Source of the DNA: Dehalococcoidia bacterium | GTDB lineage: Bacteria; Chloroflexota; Dehalococcoidia; Lucifugimonadales; UBA3495 | Direction: 5' to 3' | Length of the DNA: 64,000 bases | Assembly (NCBI GenBank): GCA_965204805.1 | Contig: OZ242013.1 | Coordinates: 2,541,232 to 2,605,231 of the forward strand | In this document: positions 4,915 to 56,065 of the stretch, piece by piece | Layout of the letters: each line of letters opens with the position of its first letter | Position numbering within the stretch: position 1 is the stretch's first letter | Made by a program: the position numbers and the translations under genes | The notes under the pieces: generated by a model | Database searches by the model: none | The model's input: only the letters and a program-made list of their open reading frames with translations | What the model was told of the DNA's origin: nothing

Positions 4915-4982
4915 TTTTTGACATAACCTTGCCTCGCTGGTTAAATGCAACCCACTCCAACAGTAATTGAGACAGGTGAGCT

Positions 4983-6062
4983 ATGAAAGCAGCAGTGATG
5001 CGGGAAGTGAACCGGCCCCTGGAAATCGAGGACGTGGATGTGGCGTCGCCCGGGCCGCGCGAGGTGCTGGTGCGCACCGGGGCTTCGGGGGTCTGCCACA
5101 GCGATTTGCACTTCATCGAGGGGCTGTACTCCACGCCGACGCCGATAATCCTGGGGCATGAGGCGGCCGGGACTATCGAAGCCGTCGGGGAACTGGTGGA
5201 CTACGTGAAGCCCGGCGACCGGGTGATAACCTGCCTGTCGGTCTTCTGCGGCACCTGCGAGCGGTGCACCGAGGGGCGCACGGTGCTGTGCTCCCGGACG
5301 GGGCTGACCCGCGGGCCCAGCGAGACGCCGCGCCTGAGCCAGAACGGGCAGGAGGTGATGCAATTCGCCAACCTGTCGTCCTACGCCGAGCAGATGCTGG
5401 TGCATGAGAACGCTGTGGTGAAGATAGACCGCGACGTGCCTTTCGAGCAACTGGCTCTCATCGGCTGCGGCGCGACCACGGGCTTGGGCGCGGCACTGAA
5501 CACCGCCGCCGTGCGCCCCGGCAGCACCGTGGCGGTCATCGGCTGCGGCGGCGTGGGCCTGAACGCCATCCAGGGGGCGGCGCTGGCCGGGGCGCTGCGC
5601 ATCATCGCCATCGACGCGGTGGAGACCAAGCTGACCCTGGCCCAGGAGTTCGGGGCCACCGAGGTCATTGACGCTTCGGGCGGCGACGTGGTCAGAAAGG
5701 TGCGCGACCTGACCAACGGCGGCGTGGACTACTCCTTTGAGGCCATCGGGAAGAAGGAGACGGCGGAGCAGGCGTTCCATATGCTGCGGGCGGGCGGCAC
5801 GGCCACCATCATCGGGATGATACCGCAAGGCACCAAGATCGAGCTGGACGGGCCGTCGTTCCTGCGGGAGCGGCGCATCCAGGGCAGCAGCATGGGCAGC
5901 AACCACTTCCGCACCGATATGCCGCAGTACGTGGAGTTCTACCTGCAAGGCCGCCTGAAGCTGGACGAGCTGGTGTCACGGCGCCTGGGCCTGGAGGACA
6001 TCAACGACGCCTTCGAGTACATGAAGGAAGGCAGCGTGGCGCGGAGCGTGATTACGTTCTAG
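4983..6062 (+). CDS. zinc-dependent alcohol dehydrogenase family oxidoreductase
   Basis: GVCHSDLH, GHEAAGTIEAVG and GCGGVGL Rossmann motifs. Confidence 0.85.
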   Translation: MKAAVMREVNRPLEIEDVDVASPGPREVLVRTGASGVCHSDLHFIEGLYSTPTPIILGHEAAGTIEAVGELVDYVKPGDRVITCLSVFCGTCERCTEGRTVLCSRTGLTRGPSETPRLSQNGQEVMQFANLSSYAEQMLVHENAVVKIDRDVPFEQLALIGCGATTGLGAALNTAAVRPGSTVAVIGCGGVGLNAIQGAALAGALRIIAIDAVETKLTLAQEFGATEVIDASGGDVVRKVRDLTNGGVDYSFEAIGKKETAEQAFHMLRAGGTATIIGMIPQGTKIELDGPSFLRERRIQGSSMGSNHFRTDMPQYVEFYLQGRLKLDELVSRRLGLEDINDAFEYMKEGSVARSVITF

Positions 6063-8358: not shown

Positions 8359-9011
8359 TCGATCCTAGCTCAACTGCTACTTATCCAGCACTATGGAACC
8401 ACGACGCCAAGAAAGAAAATAGAATGGTTTGTAGTCCAGACTTCCAATTAGAAGTAAGGCCCGGGATGGAAGCCAAAGCTGCAACGGTTTGGACAACTGC
8501 AAGCCACACCCATATCAATCGGGATTTTACTTTTGGTTCACAGGCATTGGCCGTTGCCTTTACAGAACGGGATTCAATAGGCGGCAGAGTGTGGCCGAAT
8601 GTGATTTTCGGAAATGGAAAGTATGACTACGCTTTTACGGTATGGGGCAACAGCACATTGGGTTTGCTGGCCTACTGGTGGCACTCCAGCCGTCAGCAGT
8701 CCAGCAAGGCAAGCATGACCATACGCCAGGCCGAAACGCTGCCCGTCCTGGACTTTCGGGCGCTGAGCGATGAGCAGCTTGCGGTGGCGGAGGGCATTTT
8801 CGACGAGTTCCGGGGGCTGGAGCTGCTGCCGGCGTACTTGGCGGACGCCGACGGGAACCGGGCGCTGCTGGACCGGCGGGTGGTGTGCGAGCTGCTGGGG
8901 CTGGGGGAGGAGGCGTACCGGGGCGTGCGGCGGCTGGCGGCGAAGTGGTGCGCGGAGCCGTCGGTGCACGGGGGCAAGCGGCGGCCGACGGGGGCGGGGT
9001 ATGTGGAGTAG
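8301..9011 (+). CDS. probable C-terminal (target-recognition) part of the 6088 methyltransferase, in a different frame
   Basis: Overlaps the 6088..8358 ORF by 58 nt in another frame. This frame only opens after 8258, and there is no independent RBS. Confidence 0.45.
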   Translation: MGLVDRDITGPAPRGPFSLIDPSSTATYPALWNHDAKKENRMVCSPDFQLEVRPGMEAKAATVWTTASHTHINRDFTFGSQALAVAFTERDSIGGRVWPNVIFGNGKYDYAFTVWGNSTLGLLAYWWHSSRQQSSKASMTIRQAETLPVLDFRALSDEQLAVAEGIFDEFRGLELLPAYLADADGNRALLDRRVVCELLGLGEEAYRGVRRLAAKWCAEPSVHGGKRRPTGAGYVE

Positions 9012-9048
9012 GGGAGTGCACAAAGGGACGTCATTCTGCCCCAAAGTG

Positions 9049-9077
9049 TTGACAAATATAGCAAGAATTAGTAGATT
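9049..9077 (+). promoter_or_regulatory. sigma70-like promoter TTGACA-N17-TAGATT
   Basis: Perfect -35 (9049-9054), 17-nt spacer, -10 at 9072-9077. No CDS lies downstream on this strand. Confidence 0.35.
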
Positions 9078-9085
9078 TGGAGTGT

Positions 9086-9230
9086 AAATCCGCGGAGTGG
9101 TTGGATAAGTCGTCGCGTTTTACGGGATAGACGCCAGACATAGCCGCGGGTTTCCCCAAATCCGTGGAGTGGCCGGGGAAACGCCCATCCCGAGAGCGGG
9201 ATGGGTGCCGGACATAGCCACGGATTTCCC
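9086..9230 (+). ncRNA. candidate structured RNA: two tandem ~72-nt stem-loop units
   Basis: Unit 1 closes AAATCCGCGG/CCGCGGGTTT and unit 2 closes AAATCCGTGG/CCACGGATTT, a compensatory C:G to T:A change. AGTGG and GACATAG are conserved. It ends in CCCTTTTC. Confidence 0.25.
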
Positions 9231-9233
9231 TTT

Positions 9234-9958
9234 TCATCGGTACAAAGACACGGTAAAGGGGGAAGGTTTGTCCGCTTCCCAGAGAGGCCGCTGGTGCGTG
9301 ACTATCGGCTCGTCCGTCGAAACGCCCAGTCTGGTTTTCATATATCCAACCAGGTTTCTCCTTACGTCAGCCCTGCTAGAACTCTGAGGGTACAACCCGT
9401 TTGAGTCCCTCCAGTCAGCTTGAACACACCCCAAAAGCACATCAACCATCTGCAAGAATACCTGTGATTCTGACGAAGCACGAATACACCCGGCGACTTC
9501 TGAAACTGAGCGGAACTCGTCCTCGACCAAGACCGAAGAATTCTTCGGTGGCGGCTGAAAATCAACGATCGCAAACACCGGGCGCTTGAGCCGTTTTTCA
9601 AGCAGATCGCGCCCCAAAGAAATGTATGCCTCCCAAGCATTGTGCCCCCAGCGGGACAAACTGAAACCCGGTTCAGTTCTATCCACCAGCAAGGCGTGAA
9701 ATTCAAAGCAAGGGAAAGAAAAGTACAGATTTAGCAACTCAATGTATTGCGGCAGATTGTGCTTGGCTATTTTTGCGAATTTGTATTCGCGGTGCCAAGA
9801 TTTCTGCGACGCGAGGTCAAAGTGCAACTTATAGAAGCTGTCAGTGACCTTGCCTGGGTCGTTCACAATGAGCAGCCCGATGCCCCAAACACGGGCTGCT
9901 CCCTGATACGGGTGGTCAACACGCCAGTTTCGTCGACGAATGCAGGTAGAACTTTCAT
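9234..9958 (-). pseudogene. DUF3800-family gene with a frameshift
   Basis: The N-terminal MKVLPAFVDETG... (start 9958) is in one frame and stops at 9875-9877. The rest (9234..9866, ...LQMVDVLLG...) is in another frame. The junction is at a G4 run near 9883-9886. Confidence 0.6.
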
Positions 9959-9975
9959 TCGACTACGATACCTTA

Positions 9976-10897
9976 GAAACTATCTCAAAACCCTGAGTTG
10001 CCATTGCCGGCGATACCAGATTAGGGCGCAGGCCAGTTGGATCAGGCCAATGTAGTTGGATGCCTTCTTGTCGTACCGGACCAGAATCGCCCGGCACTTG
10101 GATAGCCAGGCCAGGGTGCGTTCCACCACCCACCGGCGGGCCGGATGGCGTTTCACTCCTGTGGCGTCCAGCTTCTCCTCTCCTATCCGCCGAATGTGGC
10201 CCCGGTACCCGTGCGCCGCCACTGCCTCGTGGCCTGTTGGGTTGTCGTATCCCTTGTCCAGGCACAGATGCTGGGTCCCGGTTCCAGGACGCTCCACCAC
10301 TATGCCATCCAAGGTCATGTCCAGCAGCTTGGTGTCGTGAACATTGGCTCCGGCCACCACCAGGCTCAATGGCCCTCCATCCCGGTCGACCAGGATACTC
10401 CGCTTGCTGCCCGCCTTGCCCCGGTCCGTGGGATTGCGGCCTATTGAATCCCCCCCAAACGGGCCTTGCCCATGGCGCAATCTGCGGCCTGCCACTCCCA
10501 GTCCACACCACCCAGTTCCTCGCACTCCGCGACCAACTCCGCCCAGATGCGCTCCAGCACGCCCAATTCCACCCAGCGCTGGAAAGTGCGGTGAATGGTG
10601 CTGTCGTCCCCCAGTTCCCGGGGCAGGCGGTTCCAGTGGCAGCCGGTGCGCATGCGGAATATGATGCCGTCCAGGATTCGCCTCGGATCAACCCGCTTCC
10701 GTCCCGTAGCCTTGGGAGGGTCCATCTCCAGAATCACCGGGTGAATCTGCTCCCACAAATCGTCTGGAACCTCCCAAATCGTTGCCAAAGTCTCCCTCTT
10801 TCCCCTCATCATCCACCGCCTCACCAAATTTTCCTTCATCCTAACCCAACCGGATTTTCCCTCTCCCCTTCGACCTCTCCTGTTTTGAGATAGTTTC
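9976..10897 (-). mobile_element. IS5-family (IS427/IS1031-like) insertion sequence, 922 bp
   Basis: 16-bp perfect terminal inverted repeats GAAACTATCTCAAAAC (9976-9991 / 10882-10897). TTA direct repeats flank it (9973-9975, 10898-10900). Confidence 0.85.
9980..10839 (-). CDS. IS5-family DDE transposase in two frames (orfA 10441..10839, orfB 9980..~10455)
   Basis: DUF4096-like N-terminus (ILDGIIFRMRTGCHWNRLP). DDE part is NPTDRGK...LDKGYD...VERTLAW. The frames meet at a G7 run (10450-10456). Confidence 0.8.
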
Positions 10898-10975
10898 TTA
10901 GTCATTGGCAAAGAGCAAGGCGAAAACGCCCGGAAATACCGGAAATTGTAGTCTGCATTGCTCGGAATACAGGAT

Positions 10976-11752
10976 TCAGTACCGCCACTCCGGTTCGCGC
11001 TTTTGCAGGAAGGCGGTTATGCCCTCGTGGGCGTCCTCTTTGAGCAGGTTGTCCACCATCACCTGCTGGGCCACGTCGTAGGCGGCGGGGCGGTCGAGTT
11101 CTATCTGGCGGTAGAAGGCGGGCTTGCCTATGGCCAGGGTCTGGGCGCTGGCGGAGGCTATCTGGCGGGCGAGGGCGGATACGTTGGCGTCGAGGTCGCT
11201 GTCGGGGACTACGCGATTGATGAGGCCGATTTCCAGGGCCTCGGAAGACGGGATGGGCGTGCCGGTGAGCAGCATTTCCATGGCCTTCTTGGTGGTGGCT
11301 ACGGAGCGGGCCAAGGCGACGCCGGGGGTGGTGCAGAAGAGGCCAATCTGTACGCCGGGGGTGGCGAAGGAGGCGGACTCAGCGGCCACGGCCAGGTCGC
11401 AGGTGGCGACTAGCTGGCATCCGGCGGCGGTGGCGAGGCCCTGAACCTGGGCAATGACCGGCTTGGGCAGCAGACGGATGGCCTCCATGACCTCGGTGCA
11501 TAGAGCAAAGACGGCGGTGTAGGACTTGGCGTCGCGGTTGATGATTTCGTTCAGGTCGTGGCCGGAGCTGAACACCGGGCCTTCGGAGCGCAGCACCACC
11601 ACGCGGACGGCATCGTCGTCTACGAACTGGCGGAACAGCTCCTTCAGCTCGCCCAGCAGTTCGGTGGACAGGGCGTTGCGGCGTCCGGGGTTGTTGAGGG
11701 TGAGGACGGCAACACCATCCTGCAATTCGTAGCGAACGAGCTGTCCGATCAT
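10976..11752 (-). CDS. enoyl-CoA hydratase/isomerase (crotonase) family protein
   Basis: NPGRRNALS...GPVFSSGHDL...GLATAAGCQL crotonase motifs. Confidence 0.85.
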   Translation of the reverse strand: MIGQLVRYELQDGVAVLTLNNPGRRNALSTELLGELKELFRQFVDDDAVRVVVLRSEGPVFSSGHDLNEIINRDAKSYTAVFALCTEVMEAIRLLPKPVIAQVQGLATAAGCQLVATCDLAVAAESASFATPGVQIGLFCTTPGVALARSVATTKKAMEMLLTGTPIPSSEALEIGLINRVVPDSDLDANVSALARQIASASAQTLAIGKPAFYRQIELDRPAAYDVAQQVMVDNLLKEDAHEGITAFLQKREPEWRY

Positions 11753-12325: not shown

Positions 12326-13216
12326 CTAGAATTCCACGGCTTCCTTGAAGCGGCGCATCATTTTGATGTGGTCATCAGCGGTTTTCAGCCCGGCACGGCG
12401 GTTTTCGATGGAAAGGTGGGAGGCGCCCATCTTGCGCCAGTCGGCTACTTCTTCGGCCCAGTCCTCGGGGGAGTTGCCGGCGGTCTTGAGGCGGCCGTCG
12501 AGGCCAAGCTCGGAGGGGTCACGTCCGTACTCGGCCATGTAGCCGTGGACCTTGTCCTGCAAAGCGTAGCCGGCTTCGTCGGGGCCGAAGTTGGGGCACC
12601 AGCCGTCAGCGATGCGGGCGACGCGGCGCAGGGCCACGTCGGGCGGGATGGGAGCGGCCGGGCTGCCGACGCCGAGCCAGACCGGGATGGGGCGCTGCAC
12701 CGGCAGGGGGTTGATGCCGGCGTGGGTGATGTCGTGCCATTTGCCGTGGAAGTCCACGGACTCGTTGGTCCAAAGCTGGCGCATCACCTCGATTTGTTCG
12801 ACGCTGCGGGCGCCCCGGTCGTTGAAGTTCATGCCCAGCGCCTCATACTCGACGAAGTTCCAGCCGACGCCGATGCCGAGGCGCAGCCTGCCGCCGCAGA
12901 GGACGTCAATCTCGGCGGCCTGTTTGGCCACCAGCGCGGTCTGACGCTGGGGGAGGATGAGGATGCCGGACATCAGGCCCATGCCGGGGGCAACAGCGGC
13001 CAGGTAGCCCATGGTGGTCAGCGACTCATGCACCACCGACTCGTGGTTGTACATCCCGAAGAGGGGGTGGTCATAGGCGCTGGCGTCGGCACCCAGGACG
13101 TGGTCGGCGATGAACAGGTAGGAGTAGCCCATATCCTGCGCGGCCTGGGCGAAGTCGCGGATGGCGACAACATCAGGCTCGATTTCGGTCTGGGGGAAGA
13201 TGACTCCGATTTCCAT
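12326..13216 (-). CDS. LLM-class F420/flavin-dependent oxidoreductase
   Basis: Luciferase-like TIM-barrel features (ADHVLG..., RLRLGIGVGW). Confidence 0.8.
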   Translation of the reverse strand: MEIGVIFPQTEIEPDVVAIRDFAQAAQDMGYSYLFIADHVLGADASAYDHPLFGMYNHESVVHESLTTMGYLAAVAPGMGLMSGILILPQRQTALVAKQAAEIDVLCGGRLRLGIGVGWNFVEYEALGMNFNDRGARSVEQIEVMRQLWTNESVDFHGKWHDITHAGINPLPVQRPIPVWLGVGSPAAPIPPDVALRRVARIADGWCPNFGPDEAGYALQDKVHGYMAEYGRDPSELGLDGRLKTAGNSPEDWAEEVADWRKMGASHLSIENRRAGLKTADDHIKMMRRFKEAVEF

Positions 13217-13248
13217 GGATACTCCAGTAGGTTGGGATGGGATCGTTC

Positions 13249-13269
13249 AATATCCTAATTTGGGATATT
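13249..13269. promoter_or_regulatory. inverted repeat AATATCC-N7-GGATATT upstream of the HTH-nuclease gene (possible C-box-like operator)
   Basis: Perfect 7-bp arms about 30-50 bp upstream of the 13300 start. Confidence 0.3.
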
Positions 13270-13299
13270 AGAAGGTGTCAACTTATTCTAACTCATATC

Positions 13300-14139
13300 A
13301 TGACTATGATTCCTCCAGACGCCTACGATAGATTTCGGCAGCTACTTATAGAAGCGCGCCAGAAGAGCGGCCTGACTCAGACGGGAGTCGCGGCTCGTTT
13401 AGGCGTTTCTCAATCATTCGTTTCCAAGTATGAACTTGGCGAGCGCCGGTTGGACGTTATTGAACTCCTGCGTATCTCCGACATACTAAACGCCGACGTT
13501 CACGACCTTGTACGGCGAATAGCCGCCGGAGAAGATTCTTCCTCTCATATAAGTATTCTGGAAGAATTAGGGCTGACTGTAACCGAGCTAACCGTACTGA
13601 TACACGAAAACCCTAGCCTGAGGGGTATGGTCGTCGGATATGCCGCTGAACGAAAACTCCAAGACTACCTGCAATCCCGCGATGACATCACCTATATCGG
13701 GAAGCCTGACGACCACGACCGTCAGAATAAAGGCGACCACGTAATCCGATATCGAGGCCATCAGTTCACCATTGAGATTAAATCCCTCCAGACCAGGATG
13801 GTCACCAAAGACGGCGATATTTGGCGCGGGAGAGCGCAAGTTGACGCCAGTGACCGCCGGACGGTGATTTTGGCTGACGGTAGCTCCCTTGAGACGACGC
13901 TGCTGACGGTTGGCGAATTTGACGTGCTGGCGGTCAACTGTTTTGCCTTTGGTCAAGGGTGGAATTTCGTGTTCGCCAAGAACGAGGATTTGCCGCGTAG
14001 CCGATACAGAAACTACACCGATGAAGTTCGCAGACAGCTTATTGCCAGTCTTGTGTCCGTTTCCTGGCCTCCTGAGCCACCGTTTGCCGATAATCTGCTT
14101 ACGGTGCTTGACGATTTGGTCAGTAGCCACGGCAACTGA
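13300..14139 (+). CDS. XRE-type HTH domain fused to PD-(D/E)xK nuclease (putative type II restriction endonuclease with built-in controller domain)
   Basis: N-terminus is LTQTGVAARLGVSQSFVSKYELGERR. The C-terminal part has GDHVIRYRGHQFTIEIKS (D...ExK). Convergent with a DNA methyltransferase. The segment is AT-richer. Confidence 0.55.
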   Translation: MTMIPPDAYDRFRQLLIEARQKSGLTQTGVAARLGVSQSFVSKYELGERRLDVIELLRISDILNADVHDLVRRIAAGEDSSSHISILEELGLTVTELTVLIHENPSLRGMVVGYAAERKLQDYLQSRDDITYIGKPDDHDRQNKGDHVIRYRGHQFTIEIKSLQTRMVTKDGDIWRGRAQVDASDRRTVILADGSSLETTLLTVGEFDVLAVNCFAFGQGWNFVFAKNEDLPRSRYRNYTDEVRRQLIASLVSVSWPPEPPFADNLLTVLDDLVSSHGN

Positions 14140-14142
14140 ACC

Positions 14143-14883
14143 CTAAGCTCGCTTGTTTTCCTTAATGAACACCAGAAAATACGAGTGGTTTTTTCTGGCG
14201 TGTACTTGTTTCTTCAATCTGGCGACAGACGGTTTGCTGGGGCGGACTACGACGAACAGGTCTTTGGCGTAGAAGCCCAGCGACTTGTAATCGTTGATTA
14301 TCTCCACGTGGGTGAGACGCTGGCGGTTGGCACTCACCTCGTCCTGGCACTTCACGATAAGAACGCCGTCGCGTTTAAGCACCCGAAACGCTTCTCGCCC
14401 GGCTTCCCGGTATAGTTCTGTAACAGCATCGTGCCACTTAGCCTTTTCCGGCCTTTCATGGCCGTTGGAGTAGTGTTCCCGGAAGGCCGAATAGCTGCCC
14501 CCGCCCGCTTTCTGACTTGCATCGTTCCGGAAAAAGCCTTCCATATATGGCGGGTCCAGCACTACGCAGTCAATTTCGCCATCAAGATAAGGCAACTCAC
14601 GGCAGTCCACTCCCATTGATATATCCGTAGCACGGACATCGTAGATTCCGTCGCGGACTTTCTGCCAAAAGACGCCCTTTCCCCAAGTTACGTCCGCTAC
14701 GGTTGCTCCCTCCGGTACGTGCAAGCTCATGACTTGGGCGAACACATCGGCATTGCCTCCCACATGAGCGGACAGGGTGACATCGCTGGTAGCGACGCCG
14801 CCCTGCACTCGCCGGTTTCCCTGCATTTCAGGTTGCAACGCCATTCTGAACTGGTTTCCCGCCCTAGCGGTTTCTTCTATCAT
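14143..14883 (-). CDS. DNA methyltransferase (DPPY motif; N6-A or N4-C)
   Basis: [10 protein letters not shown] (SAM-binding-like) followed by [10 protein letters not shown], then [13 protein letters not shown]. Confidence 0.75.
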
Positions 14884-15149
14884 CCGCGGCGCTCCCTGGA
14901 TCTGCGCTCCGCTTCTAGGTAGATCAGGTCATCCTCGGTGTTAAGGAGCAGCTTGTATTTCTTCGGATGGCTGTCGGGGATCTGATAGATTATCTCCAGG
15001 ACTCCTTTGGTCTCCCTGATGGCGCTATCCAAATCCCTCCTGCGGGCCTCGGAAATGTCCAAGTCAACTACTTCCCCTTCAGGTAAGTCCAGCGGCTCCA
15101 GGGGGGTGAAGACCCCGTTGGCGTAATAGGCGCGCACTTTAGCGGACAT
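14880..15149 (-). CDS. small DUF104/AF2212-like (antitoxin-fold) protein, translationally coupled to the methyltransferase
   Basis: The N-terminus [32 protein letters not shown] matches the DUF104 signature. Its stop overlaps the MTase start (ATGA). Confidence 0.5.
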
Positions 15150-15169
15150 GTCAGCCTCCCTCCACCATT

Positions 15170-16354
15170 TTACCCCAGCAGACGGGTTTTCTGCGTCTCG
15201 AACTCCTCGCGGGTGAGGTAGCCCTGGTCCAGAAGGCGGGCCAGGCGTTCCAAGTCGCCTACCAGGGAGGTAGTATTGGCGGCAGGGTCCTGGGCTACTG
15301 AGCGGTCTACTTGGCGCACGTCGGTTACGCCGCATAAGCCCATGGCCACGCTCAGTTCGTTGCGCAAGATTTCGAGGCAGTGGGTGAGGCCCGCTTCGCC
15401 GGCGACGGAGAGTCCCCAGAAGATGGGGCGGCCCACGAAAGTGGCCTTGGCGCCGAGGGCCAAGGCTTTCAGCACATCGGCGCCTTTGCGGACGCCGCCG
15501 TCGAGGTAGACCTCCAGCCGGTCGCCCACGGCGTCGGCGATGGAGGGGAGCATATCTATGGAGCCTTCGGTGCCTTGCAGGGCGTGGCCGCCGTGGTTGG
15601 AGACCACCAGGGCCTCGGCACCGTTCTCGACACAGAGACGGGCGTCCTCGGCGGTCTGGATGCCCTTGACCACCAGCGGCATGGTGGTAATGGAGCGCAG
15701 CCACTCCAGGTCGCGCCAGTTCAGGCCATGCTCGAAGCTCTCGGAGAAGTTGCCCTGATTGGGCAGGTTGGGCAGCTCGATGCCGTCGAAGTTCTTGAGA
15801 ATGCGCTCCTGGTCCAAGATGTAGGCGTAGCGGTATTCGCGCTCGCGGGAGTTTGCGCCGAGGTTGTCCACCGTGAGCATCATGGCGGTGTATCCGGCGT
15901 TTTCGGCGCGGCGCACCAGTATCTCGGTGAGCTCGCGGTCCTGGAAGAAGTAGAGCTGGAACCAGAGCGGGTTGTCGGCCACCTCGGCCACCTCTTCGAT
16001 GCTGTAGCTGGAGGCGGTGCTGAGGCCCATGATGGTGTCGGCGGCAGCGGCGGCGCGGGCCGAGGCCAGTTCGCCAGCCGGGTGGGCGCGCTGGTGGGTG
16101 CCGGTGGGCGCCAGCATCACCGGGAAGCTGATTCGCTGACCAAGAACCTCGGTGGACATATCGCGCTGGCTAACGTCCACCAGGACGCGCGGGCGCAGCT
16201 TGACGGCTTCCATGGCCCGGACGTTGGCAGTGTTTGTGGTCCAGTCGGGGGCGTCCATATCGCCGAAAAGACGGTCGAACAGCGCTTTCGGCATGGTCTC
16301 CTTGGCGCGGGCTTCGTAGTCGTTGATGGTGAGCAGGGCGTTCTGCGTAGTCAT
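15170..16354 (-). CDS. FMN-dependent alpha-hydroxy-acid dehydrogenase/oxidase with C-terminal SHOCT-like tail
   Basis: Glycolate oxidase/LldD-type motifs (VSNHGG, DGGVRKGADV). The tail is LERLARLLDQGYLTREEFETQKTRLLG. Confidence 0.8.
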   Translation of the reverse strand: MTTQNALLTINDYEARAKETMPKALFDRLFGDMDAPDWTTNTANVRAMEAVKLRPRVLVDVSQRDMSTEVLGQRISFPVMLAPTGTHQRAHPAGELASARAAAAADTIMGLSTASSYSIEEVAEVADNPLWFQLYFFQDRELTEILVRRAENAGYTAMMLTVDNLGANSREREYRYAYILDQERILKNFDGIELPNLPNQGNFSESFEHGLNWRDLEWLRSITTMPLVVKGIQTAEDARLCVENGAEALVVSNHGGHALQGTEGSIDMLPSIADAVGDRLEVYLDGGVRKGADVLKALALGAKATFVGRPIFWGLSVAGEAGLTHCLEILRNELSVAMGLCGVTDVRQVDRSVAQDPAANTTSLVGDLERLARLLDQGYLTREEFETQKTRLLG

Positions 16355-20131: not shown

Positions 20132-20224
20132 GTCTGAACTGTGATTTATGGGATTAAGAGATTACCTTGATTTTATATGCTGGAATCAAGGCAATCATAA
20201 AAATCCGACGAATCACAATTCAAT
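20132..20224. repeat. PAL-GATT palindromic intergenic repeat, copy B (more diverged)
   Basis: GTCTGAACTGTGATT...AATCACAATTCAAT. It supplies the stop codon of the 20213..21244 gene. Confidence 0.8.
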
Positions 20225-22480: not shown

Positions 22481-22576
22481 GTCTGAACTGTGATTTGTGA
22501 GATTTCCGTGATTGCCCTGATTTTCTTGCTCCCGAATCATGGCAATCCCTATAATCACAAAAATCACAGTTCAGAC
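22481..22576. repeat. PAL-GATT palindromic intergenic repeat, copy C (best preserved)
   Basis: GATT at element positions 12, 21, 30 and 39, mirrored by AATC x4. Termini are GTCTGAAC/GTTCAGAC. Confidence 0.9.
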
Positions 22577-25307: not shown

Positions 25308-26609
25308 TCACGTCGCCGCCGGGTGCGCCGCCAGTTCCCGGCCTGTCCTGCGGCCCAGCCCGAAAGTGAGCGTCACCACCAGGCAGACGCCCGCGGCCCC
25401 GGTTATCGCCAGCGGCCAGCCTACTCCGGCGGCGGCCAGCGTCAGGGGCCAGGCCCCCAGGAAGTGCAGGCCCGGCACCAGGTGGAGCACACCCATCACC
25501 CGGCCGCGCACCTCCGCCGGGGATGCCAGTTGCGCTATGGTGGTCGTAAGCGGCCATACCCAGCCGATGGCCACCACACCCACCAGCAGGGTGAACACCC
25601 AGGTCGTCCAGAACCAGCCATCCCAGGATGTCCCGGTCAGGTCATCGAAAGACCCGCTCCAGGCGAACAGCGTCAGCAGAACCACGAAGGTCACCAGGCA
25701 GAACAGCAGCCAGCGGTAGAGCCAGGCCCGGTGCATGAAGGTCAGGGTCATGCTGCCGATGAGCGCCCCTATGCCCGAACCCAGCAGCAGCAGTCCGACC
25801 TCGGACGCGCCGCTGCCGAGCTGCTCCTTGGCAAAGGCGGGCACCACCTGGAGATGCGCCATCCCGAACCCGCCGAAGAAGCAGGTCATCACCAAGACCG
25901 TCAGCAGCAGCGGGGTATCGCGGATGACTGCCAGCCCCTCGCCGATATGGCGCAGCAGCGGCTGGCGACTGGTCTCGGGGTGGCTGTATGTTCCGCGAAC
26001 CATGGCCAGCAGGAGGACGCTGGCCCCGTAGCAGGCGGCGTTCAGGACCAGCACCGCGCCAATGCTCCACTGGTCTATCAGAACCCCGGCCACGGGCGGG
26101 CCAACGATCCGGCCGGCGTGCTGCGCCGCGTTGAACTGGGCCACGGCGTCCAGCAGCCTGTTCTCGCCCACCAGATCGGCGAGCATGGCCAGCCTGGCGG
26201 GCATATTCAACGCCTGCAACACCCCAAGCAGGGCCGCCGCGAGGTATATGTGCCAGAGGGCCACGTTGCCCGTGATGGTGAGCGCGGCCAGCCCGGCAAT
26301 CATGGCCCCCACCATCGCCTGGGTGACCATCAGGAGCTGCTTGCGGTCCATCCGGTCGGCGATGATGCCGCCGGCCAGCAGGAAGGCGATGTTGGGCAGG
26401 CCGTACAGGGATATGGTCAGCCCCAACTGGGTCTTGTCGCCGGTGACCTCCAGCACCAGCCACCCCAGGACCAGGAACTGCATTCCCTGGGACATGGCCT
26501 GGGCCAGCGATCCGGCCCAGTACCAACGGAAAGAAAGAACCTCCCACGGTCCCTTTATCCGGCTCCATACAGAGGGAGAGACCGATGCCGGCGGCCTGTC
26601 GGCTACCAA
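25308..26609 (-). CDS. MFS transporter (tandem paralog of 23861..25162)
   Basis: Same length (433 aa), colinear with its neighbour and clearly similar to it by eye. Confidence 0.8.
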   Translation of the reverse strand: MVADRPPASVSPSVWSRIKGPWEVLSFRWYWAGSLAQAMSQGMQFLVLGWLVLEVTGDKTQLGLTISLYGLPNIAFLLAGGIIADRMDRKQLLMVTQAMVGAMIAGLAALTITGNVALWHIYLAAALLGVLQALNMPARLAMLADLVGENRLLDAVAQFNAAQHAGRIVGPPVAGVLIDQWSIGAVLVLNAACYGASVLLLAMVRGTYSHPETSRQPLLRHIGEGLAVIRDTPLLLTVLVMTCFFGGFGMAHLQVVPAFAKEQLGSGASEVGLLLLGSGIGALIGSMTLTFMHRAWLYRWLLFCLVTFVVLLTLFAWSGSFDDLTGTSWDGWFWTTWVFTLLVGVVAIGWVWPLTTTIAQLASPAEVRGRVMGVLHLVPGLHFLGAWPLTLAAAGVGWPLAITGAAGVCLVVTLTFGLGRRTGRELAAHPAAT

Positions 26610-26673
26610 TGGGAGGTTCTCACAAGTGGACGGTTCATTATGATGATGCGCTGGAATCCATACGGCGCAGCTT

Positions 26674-27030
26674 TCACGAAGCCAGGTCCGGGATGCCCAT
26701 GCTCACGCTGCGGTAGCTGCCGCCTATGGCGCGGGTCTGGTGACCCTGGCCGGTCATGTCCTCGGCCAGCAGCACGTCGCCCGGCTGGAACTGGCGGGTT
26801 GCGCCGTCCCCGCAGATGACCTCCATCTGCCCTTCCAGCACGATGAGGTACTGGCGGCGGGTGGGGTGGTGCCAGTCGCTGAAGCTGTTCTCGGCGGAGC
26901 GGCGGAACACCAGGTCTTCGCCGGGCTTGGTGGCGACTCGCAGCGCGTCATCGCTGGGCATTCCGATGTCCTCGAAGTGCGACTGCCCATCGTCGCCGGT
27001 GTAGATGCGGACCAGCATAAACGTCTCCAT
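26674..27030 (-). CDS. cupin-domain protein
   Basis: Small beta-barrel pattern (WHHPTRRQYLIVLEGQMEV...GDVLLAED). The start is taken at METFMLV. Confidence 0.7.
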   Translation of the reverse strand: METFMLVRIYTGDDGQSHFEDIGMPSDDALRVATKPGEDLVFRRSAENSFSDWHHPTRRQYLIVLEGQMEVICGDGATRQFQPGDVLLAEDMTGQGHQTRAIGGSYRSVSMGIPDLAS

Positions 27031-27085
27031 GTTCAGATTGGCGAGCCTCGGTGGGCGCCAAGGCAAGTATAATCTATGGTGCGCT

Positions 27086-27188
27086 GTCTGAACTGTGATT
27101 TGTTTGATTTGAGGATTTTTGTGATTTTTCTCCTGAGCATCACCAGTAATCCTGAAAATCATTTAATCAAATAAATCACAGTTCAGAC
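27086..27188. repeat. PAL-GATT palindromic intergenic repeat, copy D
   Basis: Lies in the divergent promoter region between the cupin and SDR genes, with the same termini. Confidence 0.85.
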
Positions 27189-27231
27189 ACAAGGGGAGAA
27201 CGAGGAGAGTACCCGACAGGGAGGTATATTT

Positions 27232-27981
27232 ATGACGCGACTGGAAGGACGGACGGCCCTGGTCACCGGGGCGGGACGAAACATCGGGCGGGCCATTGCC
27301 CTGAAGCTGGCGGGCGAGGGGGCCAACGTGGTGGTCAATGCCCGCTCCAACCGCGATGAGGCGGAGGCGGTGGCCGAGGAGGCGCGGGGCCTGGGCGTGG
27401 AGTCCATGGCGGCGCTGGCCGACGTGGCCGACCACGAGCAGGTGTCGCGGATGTTCGCCGCCGCCGCCGAGCGGTTCGGGCAGGTGGACGTGCTGGTCAG
27501 CAACGCCGCCATCCGCCCGCACAAGCCCTTCACCGAGCTGGCGCTGGCCGACTGGGAGCGGGTGCGCGGCGTGGTGCTGGACGGCGCGTTCTACTGCGCC
27601 CGCAACGCCCTGCCGGCGATGCAGGCCAACGGCTTCGGGCGCATCGTGTTCCTCACCGGCGACGGGGCCTGGAACGGCTCGGCGGAGCGTTCCCACGTGT
27701 CGGCGGCCAAGATGGGCATCGTGGGCCTGGCCCGGGGGCTGGCCTCGGAGTTCGCGCCCCACAACGTGCGGGTCAACGTGGTCTCGCCGGGACGCATAGA
27801 CACCAGCCGCGACCTGTCGTGGTATCCGGGGCAGAACATGGCGGACACGGCGGAGATTCCCCTGGGTCGCCTGGGCCACGTGGACGACATCGCCGCCGCC
27901 TGCGTGTTCCTGGCCACAGACGACTGCGGCTTCATCACCGGGCAGACGCTGCACGTGAACGGGGGGACGGCGTATTTCTGA
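27232..27981 (+). CDS. SDR-family oxidoreductase (FabG-like)
   Basis: TGAGRNIGRAIA, NAAI and S...YxxxK-like (SAAKMG) motifs. C-terminus is ITGQTLHVNGG. Confidence 0.9.
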   Translation: MTRLEGRTALVTGAGRNIGRAIALKLAGEGANVVVNARSNRDEAEAVAEEARGLGVESMAALADVADHEQVSRMFAAAAERFGQVDVLVSNAAIRPHKPFTELALADWERVRGVVLDGAFYCARNALPAMQANGFGRIVFLTGDGAWNGSAERSHVSAAKMGIVGLARGLASEFAPHNVRVNVVSPGRIDTSRDLSWYPGQNMADTAEIPLGRLGHVDDIAAACVFLATDDCGFITGQTLHVNGGTAYF

Positions 27982-28043
27982 GGGGCGTCCCAGCATACCT
28001 GCCGTTGCTATACTGTCCTCAAACTTCACGGGCGTGGCTTGAA

Positions 28044-28382
28044 ATGATTGAAACAACGCCGCCGGAAAGCAGCGAAGAGCTCCCGGACCCGGAAACCTAC
28101 GGGGCCGAAGAGCGTCTGGCCGACGCGCTGGAGCAACTCCCTACCCCCGAAATGGTCAGGACATTAGGAGAGTTGCTAAAACCCGACGAACTGCGGGAAG
28201 TGGCCGAAGGGCTGCTGATTGATTGCGCCCAAGCCGTCCGCAAAGGAAATCTCCTGGAAAGCGCTGAGGCCATTAACGGTTGGACTGCGACAGCGGAAGA
28301 GATTATCACGACAAGAGGGCGATTCAGCGCCCTCAAGAAGACAATGGAAGAGATAAGAGCCAAATACCAGAAGACTGAGTAA
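28044..28382 (+). CDS. putative antitoxin-like small acidic protein
   Basis: 112 aa, directly upstream of a RelE/ParE-like ORF. No recognised domain. Confidence 0.35.
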   Translation: MIETTPPESSEELPDPETYGAEERLADALEQLPTPEMVRTLGELLKPDELREVAEGLLIDCAQAVRKGNLLESAEAINGWTATAEEIITTRGRFSALKKTMEEIRAKYQKTE

Positions 28383-28456
28383 AGACTGTTGTTGTCCGGC
28401 CAATATCAAGTAATCATGCTTCCACGACCGCCAGGTTCATCGACCGCCACCCCGAC

Positions 28457-28657
28457 TTGGCGGCCCGCGTCAGCGGCATACTTCAATACCTGTCCGTGAA
28501 TCCATACGCCGGGCCAAGGATTACGCATCTGAAAGGCCGGTTCCACTGTCGCCGCAGGTGGCGGGAAGGCGACTACCGAATCCTCTACGACGTCATTGAA
28601 GACGACCGGGTGGTTGAAATTTTCGACGCGGACAATCGCGGCCAGATTTACAGGTAA
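28457..28657 (+). CDS. RelE/ParE-fold toxin, N-terminus atypical or decayed
   Basis: ...L..NPYAGPRITHLKGRFHCRRRWREGDYRILYDVIEDDRVVEIFDADNRGQIY. The frame is open from about 28400 but has no ATG/GTG before the TTG at 28457. Confidence 0.45.
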   Translation: MAARVSGILQYLSVNPYAGPRITHLKGRFHCRRRWREGDYRILYDVIEDDRVVEIFDADNRGQIYR

Positions 28658-28661
28658 TCTG

Positions 28662-28752
28662 GCCGCCTGCGTGTTCCTGGCCACGGACGACTGCGGCTTC
28701 ATCACCGGGCAGACCATCCACGTGAACGGGGGAACGGCGTACTTCTGAGGGG
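28662..28752 (+). pseudogene. orphan duplicate of the SDR gene 3' end (last ~28 codons plus stop)
   Basis: About 90 bp matching 27895-27985. It encodes AACVFLATDDCGFITGQTIHVNGGTAYF* against ...QTLHVNGGTAYF*. Confidence 0.75.
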
Positions 28753-28771
28753 TACTTGGGAGCCACAATTG

Positions 28772-28800
28772 TTGCATAATCAAATAAATGATTTTATAAT
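28772..28800 (+). promoter_or_regulatory. sigma70-like promoter TTGCAT-N17-TATAAT
   Basis: Consensus -10 and 17-nt spacing, upstream of the 28914 gene. Confidence 0.4.
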
Positions 28801-28831
28801 CTGTTTGATTCAACAATCATCATGCAGCAGG

Positions 28832-28897
28832 GAATATAACGCCACTCGCGCGGCGCGCCCGCTCCCGGCGCGACACGCGGCGAAGGGCGTTATATTC
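28832..28897 (+). promoter_or_regulatory. structured 5' leader: 12-bp stem GAATATAACGCC/GGCGTTATATTC enclosing a 42-nt GC-rich insert
   Basis: Perfect inverted repeat ending 16 nt before the ATG at 28914. Confidence 0.35.
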
Positions 28898-28913
28898 TGC
28901 AAAACGGAAGCGG

Positions 28914-31859
28914 ATGAACCAACAAGCCCGCAAGACCATCGGCGTCGCACTGCTCCTGGCCGCGGCCCTCCTCGCTATTCTGGTTGTTACCGTTCTTTCG
29001 TCCTCGTCCCCGCCCGGAGTTGCCGCGCACGAGTGCGCCCCTGATCCCACCCCGAATCACCAAGACTCCCGTGGGGCGGATTGCGATACTAACGAACACC
29101 GCGACCCTGATCACCAAGCCCCCCGCAAGGTCAACACAGTGGACGGGGGAAGAGACCGGAAGCTGGTGTTCCATGTCAGTGCGGGAGAAGGCAGCAGCTA
29201 CCTTGGCGAAAACGACCAGATCGAATTCATGCTGCCGGGGTTTGACCTGCCAAATAGCATTGACAAAGAACTCATAAAACTTTCCGGCAGCGGTGACCCC
29301 GATGACCAAGACCCTCTCAACCCGTCGTCTGCCACCCCTGGCGTCGGCAATTTACTAACCCTGGCTTTGCCACCTGGGCTTGCAACCAGAATCGGCGCTC
29401 ACGAGTACCTCATCGTTACCATTGAAAAAGGAACCGGTATCCTAACGCCGGAAATTCCCAAAGGGTTCGACGACTCTGATGAAGGATACAGTGTCGGCAT
29501 TACCTTAATCGATAAGGCAAACACCAACAATCCGAGCCGGAGTGATCCTCAGTACGAAAACATCGTAGTGGTCAGGAACCCTGTCAGTTCCACCGTTCCC
29601 AGCGATACGGTGCACGTTGAGCTGGCAACACACACGGAAATGGATCTCAAAAGCGGCGATGAAATCACGGTGGATTTTTCCGGCCCTTCCGCCGATTCTG
29701 ACTTCGTCGTTCCGGCCAGCAGAGTAACCAAAGGCAGGATTAAGATAGACCCCGATGATCCTAATGTCATGCCAAGTTCCTTCCCACCTTCGGATGTCCT
29801 GGTTCAGGGCGCCAGGGTGACACTAACTATTCCGAGAATAGATGAAGCCGAGATAAATTGGGCAGGCGACTACACTATTTCCTTCACCTCCGCCGCCGGC
29901 ATCAAGAACCCCTTTGCCGCCGGTAACCATGTCATAAAGGTTTGGTCCTCTGTCGAGGGAGAAGACAAAGGAGACGATATAACGGCGGTAATACGGCGGA
30001 CAACCACGATAGATACCGAGGAAGGCCCTCGCGGAACTGAGTTCATCCTGACGGGCAAGGGCTACCCACCTGGCACGGTCACCGTCTACCACGACGCCGA
30101 CTGCGACGGGAAAATCGACGCCGGGGAAACCCTGGCTTCCAGGAACACCACGAGGGGCGTGTTTAACGTTGACCTGGTAGCCCGCGAGCCCCGCGAACTG
30201 GATATTCCTGAGTGCCGCCCATTGAATCCCCTTGAGTACCGGGTCAAGGCCAAGGACAGCGAAGGAGTGGACGCTGAGGTGGTTTTCCGCATCGAAAGCG
30301 GTATCCTCTTCGTCCCGGACCCGGCCCAGGTCGGCTCGCCGCTGAAAATCACCATCTCGGACTGGAAGAACCCCAATGAGCACGTGGCCGTCGTCAATAT
30401 TGCCGGTGAACCGGCCTACGTCACGGGCGTGAAAGCGTATAGCAACTGCATCGACTATACCGGCGAATTCAGGGCGAACGACGACCGCGTGATGTCCCTT
30501 GAGGTCCTGGTTCCTGTGCACGTGCCGCCGGGGGAGCAGACGGTTGCGCTCTATGACCATGGAGAGTTGGTGAATTATCTGGTAGATGAAAAAGGCAAAT
30601 ATGTGCTCGATGATGAAGACAACAAGATTCAATACACCGAGGTTGTGGATGTGTGCTCCGACCTGCCTTCAAACAAAAAAAGGGGAAGCAGGGTTGACAG
30701 CAATTTGGTGGCTGAGCTGAAGGAGGAGCCGTCGCCACCAATAATCAAGGCAACCGTCAAGATAGTGGAGCAGAACTTGACGCTGACCCCGGACACGGCG
30801 GCGCGGGGGCAGAAGGTCACCATTACCGCCACCGGGTTCACCCGGGCCGCAAGGGGAGAGGACCACATCAGGTCGGTGTGGATCGGGGGCGTGAGGGTTC
30901 CCGACGACCATTCAGAGTTCGAGGTGGGAACCAACCGCGACATCGCTTTCACCGTCACCGTCCCGCTGGACGTTGCCGACGGGCCCAATGAGGTGCTGAT
31001 AGAAGGCGCAGACCACACCCTGGGCCAAGCGACGCTGGAGATACCGAAAGCGTCCATCACCCTCGCCCCGCCGCAGGGACAGCGAGGCACGGAGCTTACG
31101 GTGACCGGCAGCGGCTTCGTCGCCAAGGAAGCGGTGCTGCTGTCCTACCACAGCGGGGCGCTTATCACGTCCGCAACCACCGAACTGGCAAGTTCAGGGA
31201 TACTGGCCGATGCCCAGGGCGGGTTTGAGTTGCCTTTCAAGGTGCCGGTCACCGCCGAGGTGGGATTGAGCCACCTGGTCACTGCGGTGAGCAAGGCGGA
31301 TACCCCCGCAGCGGTCAGGGCCGAGGCCAGCCACCTGGTCACCCGGACCGACATCACGACCACGCCCGGTTCGGTATCGCCGGGCGATCACCTGGCCATC
31401 AGCGCCCGTCGCATGCCGCCCTTCACGCTGGTCGGCCCCATAAAAATCGCCAGCATACCCCTCAGCCTCCCTCCCGGAGTCGCCACTGATGAAGACGGCT
31501 CCTTCGAGACGAAGGTCCTGATTCCCCATATCGAATATGGAGACCATACCCTGCTGGTCCAGGTGGCCGGGGTGATAATTCCCCACGTAGTCGAGGTGGC
31601 CCCCCCACCCCTCAGCGGCCCGCCCGGCCAGGTGTTCAAATACCCAATCAGGAGCGGGACATTATCAACGGTATGGCACTACGACAACGCCACCCAGTTG
31701 TGGAGCCTGTTCGACCCATTGCTCAATGGGGAGATGGCGGAACTGAACGACCTGACGGAGGTCGGCAGCGGCGACATAGTGTGGGTCAATGTGAGCGAAC
31801 CGCTGTTCTTCCAGGGGAACAGTCTGAAGTCCGGCTGGAACCTGGTCAAGCTGGAGTAG
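28914..31859 (+). CDS. large secreted/anchored surface protein with IPT/TIG-like Ig-fold repeats
   Basis: N-terminal TM/signal (IGVALLLAAALLAILVV). Repeated G(Q/P)(K/R)GTE(L/F).(V/L)TG.GF units. Confidence 0.6.
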   Translation: MNQQARKTIGVALLLAAALLAILVVTVLSSSSPPGVAAHECAPDPTPNHQDSRGADCDTNEHRDPDHQAPRKVNTVDGGRDRKLVFHVSAGEGSSYLGENDQIEFMLPGFDLPNSIDKELIKLSGSGDPDDQDPLNPSSATPGVGNLLTLALPPGLATRIGAHEYLIVTIEKGTGILTPEIPKGFDDSDEGYSVGITLIDKANTNNPSRSDPQYENIVVVRNPVSSTVPSDTVHVELATHTEMDLKSGDEITVDFSGPSADSDFVVPASRVTKGRIKIDPDDPNVMPSSFPPSDVLVQGARVTLTIPRIDEAEINWAGDYTISFTSAAGIKNPFAAGNHVIKVWSSVEGEDKGDDITAVIRRTTTIDTEEGPRGTEFILTGKGYPPGTVTVYHDADCDGKIDAGETLASRNTTRGVFNVDLVAREPRELDIPECRPLNPLEYRVKAKDSEGVDAEVVFRIESGILFVPDPAQVGSPLKITISDWKNPNEHVAVVNIAGEPAYVTGVKAYSNCIDYTGEFRANDDRVMSLEVLVPVHVPPGEQTVALYDHGELVNYLVDEKGKYVLDDEDNKIQYTEVVDVCSDLPSNKKRGSRVDSNLVAELKEEPSPPIIKATVKIVEQNLTLTPDTAARGQKVTITATGFTRAARGEDHIRSVWIGGVRVPDDHSEFEVGTNRDIAFTVTVPLDVADGPNEVLIEGADHTLGQATLEIPKASITLAPPQGQRGTELTVTGSGFVAKEAVLLSYHSGALITSATTELASSGILADAQGGFELPFKVPVTAEVGLSHLVTAVSKADTPAAVRAEASHLVTRTDITTTPGSVSPGDHLAISARRMPPFTLVGPIKIASIPLSLPPGVATDEDGSFETKVLIPHIEYGDHTLLVQVAGVIIPHVVEVAPPPLSGPPGQVFKYPIRSGTLSTVWHYDNATQLWSLFDPLLNGEMAELNDLTEVGSGDIVWVNVSEPLFFQGNSLKSGWNLVKLE

Positions 31860-31968: not shown

Positions 31969-32643
31969 TTAGCGGAAGCGGAACTCTTTCAGGTTGGGCG
32001 ATACGTTCAGCCTGGCCCCGGTGAGTTCCTGGATTTCCTCGGGGTTCCAGCCGGGGGCGTTCTCCACCAGCTCGAAGCCGTCGGGGGTGATGGTGAACAG
32101 GCCCAGGTCGGTGACCAGCATCTTGACCACGCCGGGGGCGGTGATGGGGAGCTTGCAGCGCTTGAGCAGGCGGGGCTCGCCCTCGCGGGTGGTGTGCTCC
32201 ATGGCGATGAAGACGCGCTTGGCGCAGGCCGCCAGGTCCATGGCGCCGCCGATGCCGCCGCCCTTGCGGGTGGGGATGCGCCAGTTGGCGAAGTCGCCGT
32301 TCTCCGCCACCTCGTAGGCGCCCATCACCGTAACGTCAATCATGCCGCCGCGAATCATCATGAAGGAATCGGCGTGATGCACAATCGCCATGCCCTCCAG
32401 GGGCGTCACGTGCTGCCCGCCGGCGTTGACCAGGTGCCGGTCTTCGTGGCCCTCTGCGGCCAGCGGGCCGTAGCCCACAACGCCGTTCTCCGAGTGATTG
32501 ATGATTTCCCGCGAAGGGTCAACGTAGTTGGAGCAGAGGGTGGGCATTCCCACGCCCAGGTTGACGATCCAGCCGTCCTGGAACTCCATCGCCAGGCGGT
32601 CGCACATCTGCTGGCGGGTCAGCTTCGTCTTTTCGGCGGTCAT
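31969..32643 (-). CDS. scoB: 3-oxoacid CoA-transferase subunit B
   Basis: Class I CoA-transferase beta-subunit motifs (NLGVGMPT, SENG). Confidence 0.85.
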   Translation of the reverse strand: MTAEKTKLTRQQMCDRLAMEFQDGWIVNLGVGMPTLCSNYVDPSREIINHSENGVVGYGPLAAEGHEDRHLVNAGGQHVTPLEGMAIVHHADSFMMIRGGMIDVTVMGAYEVAENGDFANWRIPTRKGGGIGGAMDLAACAKRVFIAMEHTTREGEPRLLKRCKLPITAPGVVKMLVTDLGLFTITPDGFELVENAPGWNPEEIQELTGARLNVSPNLKEFRFR

Positions 32644-56049: not shown

Positions 56050-56065
56050 AGCCGCGCCAGTCCGT

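Follow-up and report, generated by a model that had tools for sequence, protein, structure and literature searches.

Integrative elements that settle in the 3' ends of genes carry a replacement end for their target; this is so for islands in tRNA genes and, in streptococci, for the integrative and conjugative elements (ICE) and cis-mobilisable elements (CIME) at the 3' end of fda. Direct repeats of which one copy completes the target gene are the classic signature of an attachment (att) site. Chromosomal integrons carry toxin–antitoxin (TA) gene cassettes, and it is a general phenomenon that a gene fragment evolves in concert with its functional copy through ectopic gene conversion. The locus described here shares features with all of these. 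It lies in a stretch of 64,000 nucleotides (nt) of contig OZ242013.1 from a Dehalococcoidia bacterium (hereafter the window), in which a small TA-like gene pair is bracketed by the end of a short-chain dehydrogenase (SDR) gene and by a second, stranded copy of that end, termed the orphan. The history that we favour, and consider probable though well short of certain, is one old insertion at the end of the SDR gene, followed by long residence, overwriting of the orphan and, in the window, loss of the toxin.

The features at the centre of this history are the following (coordinates are those of the window; aa, amino acids; pI, isoelectric point; ORF, open reading frame):

27232-27981, + strand: SDR gene, intact, encoding a FabG-like short-chain dehydrogenase of 249 aa (Pfam adh_short_C2, 199.7 bits; NCBIfam FabG subfamily, 222 bits; orthologues in 80 loci)
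27895-27985, + strand: repeat copy 1, the last 84 nt of the SDR gene with its TGA stop codon and GGGG (repeat search, alignment)
27986-28043, + strand: cassette leader with the conserved motif GTTGCTATACTG, upstream of the antitoxin-like ORF (conserved in the window and in related loci L084, L086, L087 and L090)
28044-28382, + strand: antitoxin-like ORF of 112 aa, acidic (pI 4.5), predicted all-helical, of no known family (ORF, database and structure searches)
28392-28657, + strand: RelE/ParE-superfamily toxin gene, frameshifted (alignment, translations, tblastn, structure match)
28662-28752, + strand: repeat copy 2, the orphan SDR 3' end (repeat search, alignment, nhmmer)

The direct repeat (27895-27985 and 28662-28752, from a repeat search and pairwise alignment) spans 91 nt, with 85 of the 91 bases identical and a start-to-start spacing of 767 nt. 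It is far beyond chance; the runner-up direct repeat in the surrounding 4 kb measures 29 nt at 72% identity. TGAGGGG continues both copies, and homology ends sharply on either side. Five of the six mismatches (27918, 27948, 27949, 27951, 27966 and 27975) occupy the third codon position of the SDR frame, and the six together amount to four synonymous codon changes and one CTG>ATC change (L>I). The orphan still reads AACVFLATDDCGFITGQTIHVNGGTAYF* in an open frame with its stop codon present and no start codon of its own, and it starts 4 nt past the toxin stop codon (28655-28657). An earlier sequence-only reading of the window had drawn attention to the recurrence of about 90 bp of the SDR gene at this distance from the toxin, to the four synonymous changes and single L>I, and to the TGAGGGG after both copies, all of which we verified.

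The insert between the copies measures 676 nt (27986-28661) and has a G+C fraction (GC) of 0.56, against 0.715 for the SDR gene. The same reading had placed only an acidic ORF and a RelE-like ORF in these roughly 680 bp; the contents stand, whereas the toxin gene proves not to be intact. The two genes are co-oriented, antitoxin first, with a gap of 9 nt, a layout common to 14 related loci. The leader upstream of them is a presumed promoter or operator; a promoter and terminator scan was uninformative, the sigma-70 consensus giving no match. For the first protein, searches of Pfam, NCBIfam and PDB returned no sequence match, its all-helical AlphaFold model (pLDDT 82.5) had no Foldseek match at E<1, and across these sequence and structure searches no DNA-binding or antitoxin domain was recognisable in its 112 aa. 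Its casting as an antitoxin goes by position, size and charge only.

The downstream gene carries, in the window, a 1-nt deletion between 28427 and 28428 that breaks the reading frame. Seven relatives aligned at this site have an extra G and an open toxin frame of 88-89 aa, and tblastn found the frame uninterrupted in all 14 related loci, the frameshift being unique to the window among 15 copies. The window toxin either is a fresh pseudogene or carries a sequencing error. In sequence, the toxin scores below the curated cut-offs of Pfam PF05016 (ParE_toxin; 17-22.6 bits vs 23) and TIGR02385 (20.1 vs 27.9), and a PDB profile search matched it to RelE over its full length at E=0.016. A structure model built from homologues (pLDDT 72) gave M. 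tuberculosis RelE1/RelE2 as best Foldseek matches (probability 1.0, TM 0.6-0.65, but E only 4e-3), with T. thermophilus RelE and YoeB also matched. Membership in the RelE family thus lies beneath the curated sequence thresholds and is likely from the predicted fold, and toxin–antitoxin seems a fair label for the pair.

The same arrangement extends well beyond the window. Close relatives of the SDR protein come from long-read metagenome-assembled genomes of Dehalococcoidia (84-97% identity), and the search for homologues of the cassette yielded 22 of the antitoxin-like protein (68-92% identity, searched among 5.8 billion clusters) and 20 of the toxin. Copies with readable surroundings number 15, namely the window and 14 loci from several independent samples, and all 15 sit in the interval between the SDR gene and a pair of CoA-transferase genes. 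In 13 of the 14 related loci, the pair lies directly after the SDR end or the place that the SDR gene formerly held. The order cupin-SDR-antitoxin-toxin-orphan recurs in 13 further loci, which were again drawn from several independent samples. Wherever an orphan is present (14 loci, the window and 13 others), it begins at the same SDR position (nhmmer model positions 28-33, supported by alignments), 4-9 nt past the toxin stop; this common start argues for a single founding event. Across the 13 junction-sharing loci the cassette is 82-95% identical to that of the window, locus L094 being the closest at 95%. For the divergent locus L090, identity to the window is 75.5% for the TA pair, 78.4% for the SDR gene, 75.0% for the cupin gene and 77.7% for the CoA-transferase gene, and cassette divergence thus appears roughly in step with that of the flanking genes. 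Given the shared junction and this co-divergence, the insertion is ancient relative to the clade, and there is no sign of present mobility.

Searches further afield were negative. Neither cassette gene has a relative in viral contigs or plasmids, the window holds no second copy of the cassette, and exact-protein look-ups of the window SDR and antitoxin-like protein found no match. A metagenome scan with the 16-mer ACAATCGCGGCCAGAT gave chance matches only, none of the 80 loci among the matches listed being related, and a literature search for TA insertions with gene-end duplication turned up no relevant paper. The combination of a RelE-fold toxin with this helical partner, which fits no described class, is known only from the present Dehalococcoidia lineage.

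Differences between orphans are structured by codon, as the following comparisons show:

Window orphan and L089 orphan: 14 differences, 12 at codon position 3 (P=8e-5)
L087 orphan and L089 orphan: 16 differences, 12 at codon position 3 (P=8e-4)
Window SDR end and window orphan: 6 differences, 5 at codon position 3 (P=0.018)

The pattern is weak in the window pair alone and strong across lineages. It argues against neutral drift of the full-length orphans since the founding event, which would have spread the differences evenly over codon positions. Codon structure had already been proposed from the window alone and is upheld here; the accompanying idea, that the orphan is the odd or foreign allele, finds no support. 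The window orphan encodes exactly the clade consensus peptide, and it differs from relatives' functional SDR ends at 4 (L094) or 5 (L081) sites, as opposed to 6-11 for the window's own SDR end, so that the attached copy (with ACA and ACGCTG) is, as judged from these alleles, the more derived of the two.

Further comparisons bear on where the orphans obtain their sequence. The window orphan is as close to the SDR ends of other genomes as to its own. The L089 orphan and the L089 SDR gene share the rare variant GGGTTTGTG (FV, Phe-Val). The orphans of L086-88, with no SDR gene in cis, carry 2-3 amino-acid changes, and the short or fused orphans of other loci resemble one another, not their own SDR genes. 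Divergence between the window (26600-29000) and L094 (3558-5990) is patchy, alternating between 0-1 and 7-9 substitutions per 100 nt and reaching the higher level at 27300-27399 and 27800-27999; this mosaic points to a population in which homologous recombination is frequent, or else to a chimeric consensus of L094 at low coverage. Comparison of the window SDR gene segment by segment with 13 alleles gave no clear donor for its 3' third. We infer that recombination is what has preserved the full-length orphans.

The relatives also display the orphan in several conditions. It is full-length with an open frame in the window, in L086-88 and in L089, where its stop codon has been lost. In L094, the nearest relative of the window, it is full-length and degenerate, with an L>P change, a 3-nt insertion and further indels. 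In eight loci (L081-85 and L091-93) a decayed orphan is joined to the start of the gene for a large protein, and the first lesions, CCG and GACGAACCATG, are the same in these eight; CCG and +ACCA are common to the short or decayed orphans of L081-85 and L091-94. The annotated ATG of this giant secreted-protein gene lies inside GACGAACCATG, and its first codons align with the orphan, for example at 3615-3690 of L083. A dead gene end thus appears to have been recycled as a new gene start in L081-85 and L091-93.

In L086-88, three contigs of one sample, the SDR gene is gone (at about 4968-5043, corresponding to window positions 27190-27981), and the TA pair and orphan stay. Locus L001 lacks both cassette and orphan: its SDR stop codon runs directly into sequence that matches the DNA after the orphan in L089, and this is the empty site that the sequence-only reading had proposed to look for. 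L001 is placed inside the TA-bearing clade in both the SDR and the cupin trees.

Taken as a history, these observations would read as follows. A two-gene module, made of an acidic helical protein and a divergent RelE-fold toxin, would have integrated in a single ancient event at the very 3' end of the SDR gene. That event would have duplicated the last 84 nt of that gene with its stop codon, leaving one copy to complete the SDR gene and the other stranded right after the toxin stop, with the original downstream DNA behind it. The simplest one-step route, as yet unproven, would be for a circular DNA bearing a copy of the SDR end to recombine with that end in a single crossover, be it homologous or recombinase-driven. 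An SDR gene with its end copy, the cassette, the other end copy and native DNA, together with an empty site in a relative, form the layout expected from one crossover with a circle.

The module would then have been resident at this locus in a clade of uncultured Dehalococcoidia, diverging roughly with its flanks. Full-length orphans would have been overwritten repeatedly from functional SDR ends by homologous recombination, either as gene conversion from the copy 767 nt upstream or as allelic exchange with other strains, and such recopying from functional ends would explain why the differences between orphan and working copy are almost confined to silent sites. Once donor or length was lost, decay would follow, as amino-acid changes where the SDR gene is deleted, as indels, or as fusion into the next gene. 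In the window, the toxin would just have been inactivated by its frameshift, the module being on its way out.

Several points weigh against this history. (i) Neither a circular form nor an integrase nor a donor has been seen, and the mechanism of origin is conjecture. (ii) The SDR end of L001 is not the hybrid expected from a crossover between L089-like repeats. (iii) In L090 the pair lies after the large protein gene and has no significant orphan, which calls for at least one rearrangement or a second insertion. (iv) The recopying signal is confined to 84-87 nt, within which trees of the fragment are unresolved and intragenomic conversion and allelic exchange are inseparable; the phylogeny of the fragment suggested by the sequence-only reading was run, and its 87-nt trees gave this same outcome. 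(v) In the three full-orphan lineages the orphan stands in a continuous frame with an ORF that overlaps the toxin 3' end, and direct selection on a translated orphan product is therefore conceivable. (vi) The L094 contig is labelled with 3x coverage, and its odd orphan may in part be error or chimeric consensus; a sequencing error may likewise underlie the window frameshift. The possibility that the orphan is translated as an extension of the toxin was itself considered and rejected, the frames being different and the fused class breaking the orphan frame.

In an alternative origin, the duplication came first. The orphan may be what remains of a tandem SDR paralog or local tandem duplication, with the TA pair having landed between the copies and a deletion having left the last 87 nt. 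Gene-end duplications do occur in relatives, L008 having a 2.5-kb tandem with a 250-nt SDR fragment and L002 a 70-nt tandem across the SDR stop; these are real, but they are independent events. This origin would need three events instead of one, and in 14 of 14 orphan loci the stranded copy sets in at one and the same codon, directly behind the toxin stop. None of these is longer, and the truncated paralog put forward in the sequence-only reading thus finds no lineage with a larger fragment after the toxin. Moreover, the cassette follows the SDR gene and native downstream DNA follows the orphan; the post-SDR and post-orphan sequences are unrelated, which points to an insertion and not to block duplication. 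We consider a tandem origin unlikely.

Beyond the insertion-and-recopying history, the orphan could be given a role. It might act as an integrase-free "homology handle", the left-hand crossover point for DNA arriving from strains that lack the TA pair, with the CoA-transferase genes as right arm; strains would thereby swap hypervariable secreted-protein or defence cargo and keep the TA pair, and in each exchange a functional allele would be written over the orphan. As SDR ends are conserved by selection in every strain, the orphan would offer such a crossover point throughout. If so, the duplication would be a maintained part of a cassette-exchange site rather than debris. A nearest-neighbour test was weak: the orphan half and the large protein of L086-88 are both closest to L014, the protein being only 71% identical. 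The proposal is, in our view, doubtful.

The sequence-only reading had itself leaned towards a recent Campbell-type insertion, in which a small, circular and still mobile TA cassette brings in a piece of a foreign SDR allele. The structure is what a single crossover predicts, the codon-structured differences would suit two copies that both derive from functional alleles, an empty site exists in L001, and the cassette is low in GC. A Campbell-type event accordingly stays plausible for the ancient origin. It is neither recent nor active: the identical junction of toxin stop and orphan is common to 13 other loci with cassettes 82-95% identical to that of the window, and the copy nearest to relatives' alleles is the orphan, not the attached one. 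The cassette, sought elsewhere as that reading had advised, turned up in the SDR-to-CoA-transferase interval only (15 readable copies), with none in viral contigs or plasmids. A recent arrival is therefore improbable.

Comparably improbable is a decayed integrase-driven island with its attachment site at the SDR 3' end, resembling a cis-mobilisable element that has lost its integrase and possibly one of several accreted cassettes. Direct repeats do flank the insert, the upstream copy completing the SDR gene, and the interval is a variable hot spot whose cargo differs between relatives. Against this, the Pfam annotation of those related loci that were looked up shows no integrase or recombinase in their ~5 kb flanks, nor is there an integrase among the ten ORFs scanned from the low-GC patches of the window, and the sequence-only statement that none is present is thus confirmed over this range. 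A profile search for SDR-end remnants after other cargo found only the 250-nt fragment of L008 and a 28-nt piece in L002 (nhmmer), with no significant remnant behind the other cargo blocks of the loci scanned. The SDR-end remnants beside the TA pair of L090 are not significant either, the best being an 11-nt match that 25 of 2000 shuffles reached (for one of four references). The idea of serial accretion, each step making its own duplication, had also been considered and was dropped because these L090 remnants do not stand out from shuffles. An assembly artefact, whether collapse or chimeric join, for which only the general risk of metagenome assemblies speaks, can be set aside as a negligible prospect, since the same arrangement, with a full-length orphan in L086-88, L089 and L094, occurs in independent assemblies including contigs of Mb scale.

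The surroundings of the cassette include four further features (MITE, miniature inverted-repeat transposable element):

27085-27189, no strand: palindromic MITE-like repeat with 42-nt arms, between the cupin gene and the SDR gene, outside the duplication; marks the left edge of the SDR deletion in L086-88 (inverted-repeat search, L086/L087 alignment)
28753-28913, no strand: native downstream spacer, GC 0.50, shared with L094; its GGGAGCC has homologues in the spacers that follow the SDR gene or the orphan in L001, L086 and L089
28914-31859, + strand: secreted hypervariable protein of 981 aa with a signal peptide and a faint TIG domain, other cargo of the variable interval
31969-32643, - strand: 3-oxoacid CoA-transferase subunit B, conserved right border of the interval, convergent with the SDR gene (TIGR02428, 262 bits; synteny)

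Synteny across relatives runs from two MFS transporters through cupin and SDR genes and a variable interval to the convergent 3-oxoacid CoA-transferase B and A genes. In L009, L010 and L013 the SDR gene abuts the convergent CoA-transferase gene directly. In other genomes the interval may, like that of the window, hold a giant secreted protein; its cargo may also be trypsin-like proteases, an unrelated 1.8-kb block, or an OLD-like ATPase with a DUF3226 gene. Between genomes with 90-99% identity in the flanking genes, the secreted protein has 65-82%, and in relatives it is from about 550 to 1350 aa long. The OLD-like AAA_15/AAA_21 ATPase stands at the right edge of the interval in L087 (8669-10431), L088 (8771-10438), L090 (5665-6774) and L092 (8552-10320); it occupies the position that the CoA-transferase genes have in the window in L087, L088 and L092, where a DUF3226/TOPRIM gene lies beside it, and adjoins the CoA-transferase genes in L090. 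The SDR-to-CoA-transferase interval behaves like a defence or accessory hot spot.

Two relatives carry independent duplications of this gene end. A 70-nt tandem repeat spans the SDR stop of L002 (6724-6863). In L008, a 2.5-kb tandem duplication (6506-6750 vs 9060-9307 and 8855-9019 vs 11384-11548, copies 76-79% identical) takes in the SDR 3' part (250 nt), a protease and the CoA-transferase 3' end, the second copy being pseudogenised.

The palindromic repeat between the cupin and SDR genes, at 27086-27188 within the feature listed above, belongs to a set of intergenic repeats of ~95-105 bp, with further copies in the window at 4821-4915 and 22481-22576 and a single terminus at 20132-20146. Its termini read GTCTGAACTGTGATT...AATCACAGTTCAGAC, the terminal 15-mer GTCTGAACTGTGATT occurring 7 times in the window vs 0.06 expected, and from its sequence it looks like a MITE or a repetitive extragenic palindromic (REP)-type element. 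The copy between the cupin and SDR genes is absent at this site in L084 and present in L085, L086-88 and L094. The SDR deletion in L086-88 spans from the right terminus of this element to about the SDR stop codon, and such a deletion, flush with the element terminus, suggests an adjacent deletion of the transposon type.

Within the native spacer, a hairpin (28832-28897) with 18-nt arms (GAATATAACGCCACTCGC / GCGAAGGGCGTTATATTC) and a 30-nt loop lies just upstream of the start of the secreted-protein gene; ahead of it is an AT-rich palindrome (28770-28825) akin to the inner part of the MITE-like element. Low-GC patches (0.52-0.56 vs 0.62 overall) occur elsewhere in the window at 9000-10900, 13000-15700, 55000-57000 and 59000-60400. 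ORFs at 9.2-10.9 kb fall in no family, an HTH_3 protein, a partial N6_N4 DNA methylase and an AF2212-like small protein are encoded at 13.2-15.7 kb, and an NYN-domain protein is encoded at 56.1-56.8 kb.

Ultimately, the locus offers a natural example of how a selfish two-gene module can enter the end of a useful gene without breaking that gene, and the long-term fate of the leftover gene fragment is visible in relatives. Stages stand side by side: the empty site, the full orphan, decay after loss of the donor, reuse as the start codon of a neighbour, and a toxin that is dying in the window. The event is of a known kind and reveals no new system or mechanism; what it contributes is a RelE-fold toxin whose helical partner is unclassified, and it flags the interval between the SDR and CoA-transferase genes as a variable hot spot.

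Among described systems, RelBE-type type II TA modules (RelE/ParE superfamily, PF05016, TIGR02385) are the counterpart of the gene pair itself. As in these, two small co-oriented genes lie 9 nt apart, an acidic upstream partner (pI 4.5 in the window pair) precedes a basic downstream one (88 aa, pI 9.6), the toxin model superposes on M. tuberculosis RelE1/RelE2, T. thermophilus RelE and YoeB, and the C-terminal end of the toxin has a conserved R..Y motif. Unlike them, the toxin sequence scores under the family cut-offs (22.6 vs 23; 20.1 vs 27.9), for the upstream protein neither an antitoxin family or fold nor a DNA-binding domain could be recognised, and the toxin is frameshifted in the window. 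To judge by sequence and model, the pair would thus behave as a type II module of the RelBE type in which one partner is unclassified. The TA cassettes of chromosomal integrons are similar in that a presumably promoter-bearing TA pair well under 1 kb stands in a variable gene array; here, however, the annotated flanks contain no IntI (attC-type repeats were not searched for), and the flanking repeat is the end of a host gene.

With integrative elements of gene 3' ends, the locus shares the direct repeats, an upstream copy that completes the SDR gene, a downstream copy that is stranded and followed by native DNA, and empty sites in relatives. It differs in that no annotated flank of the cassette loci holds an integrase and in that the insert is only 676 nt long, occupies one locus only, co-diverges with its host and gives no evidence of excision. 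As for concerted evolution by ectopic conversion, no conversion tracts are mappable in 87 nt, and exchange with the SDR ends of other strains fits equally well. The likeness to such conversion nevertheless extends to several traits: the non-coding orphan keeps an open frame, differences between lineages fall mainly at silent sites, the L089 orphan carries a lineage-specific variant of the SDR gene in cis, and decay sets in once the donor has been deleted or too little homology is left.

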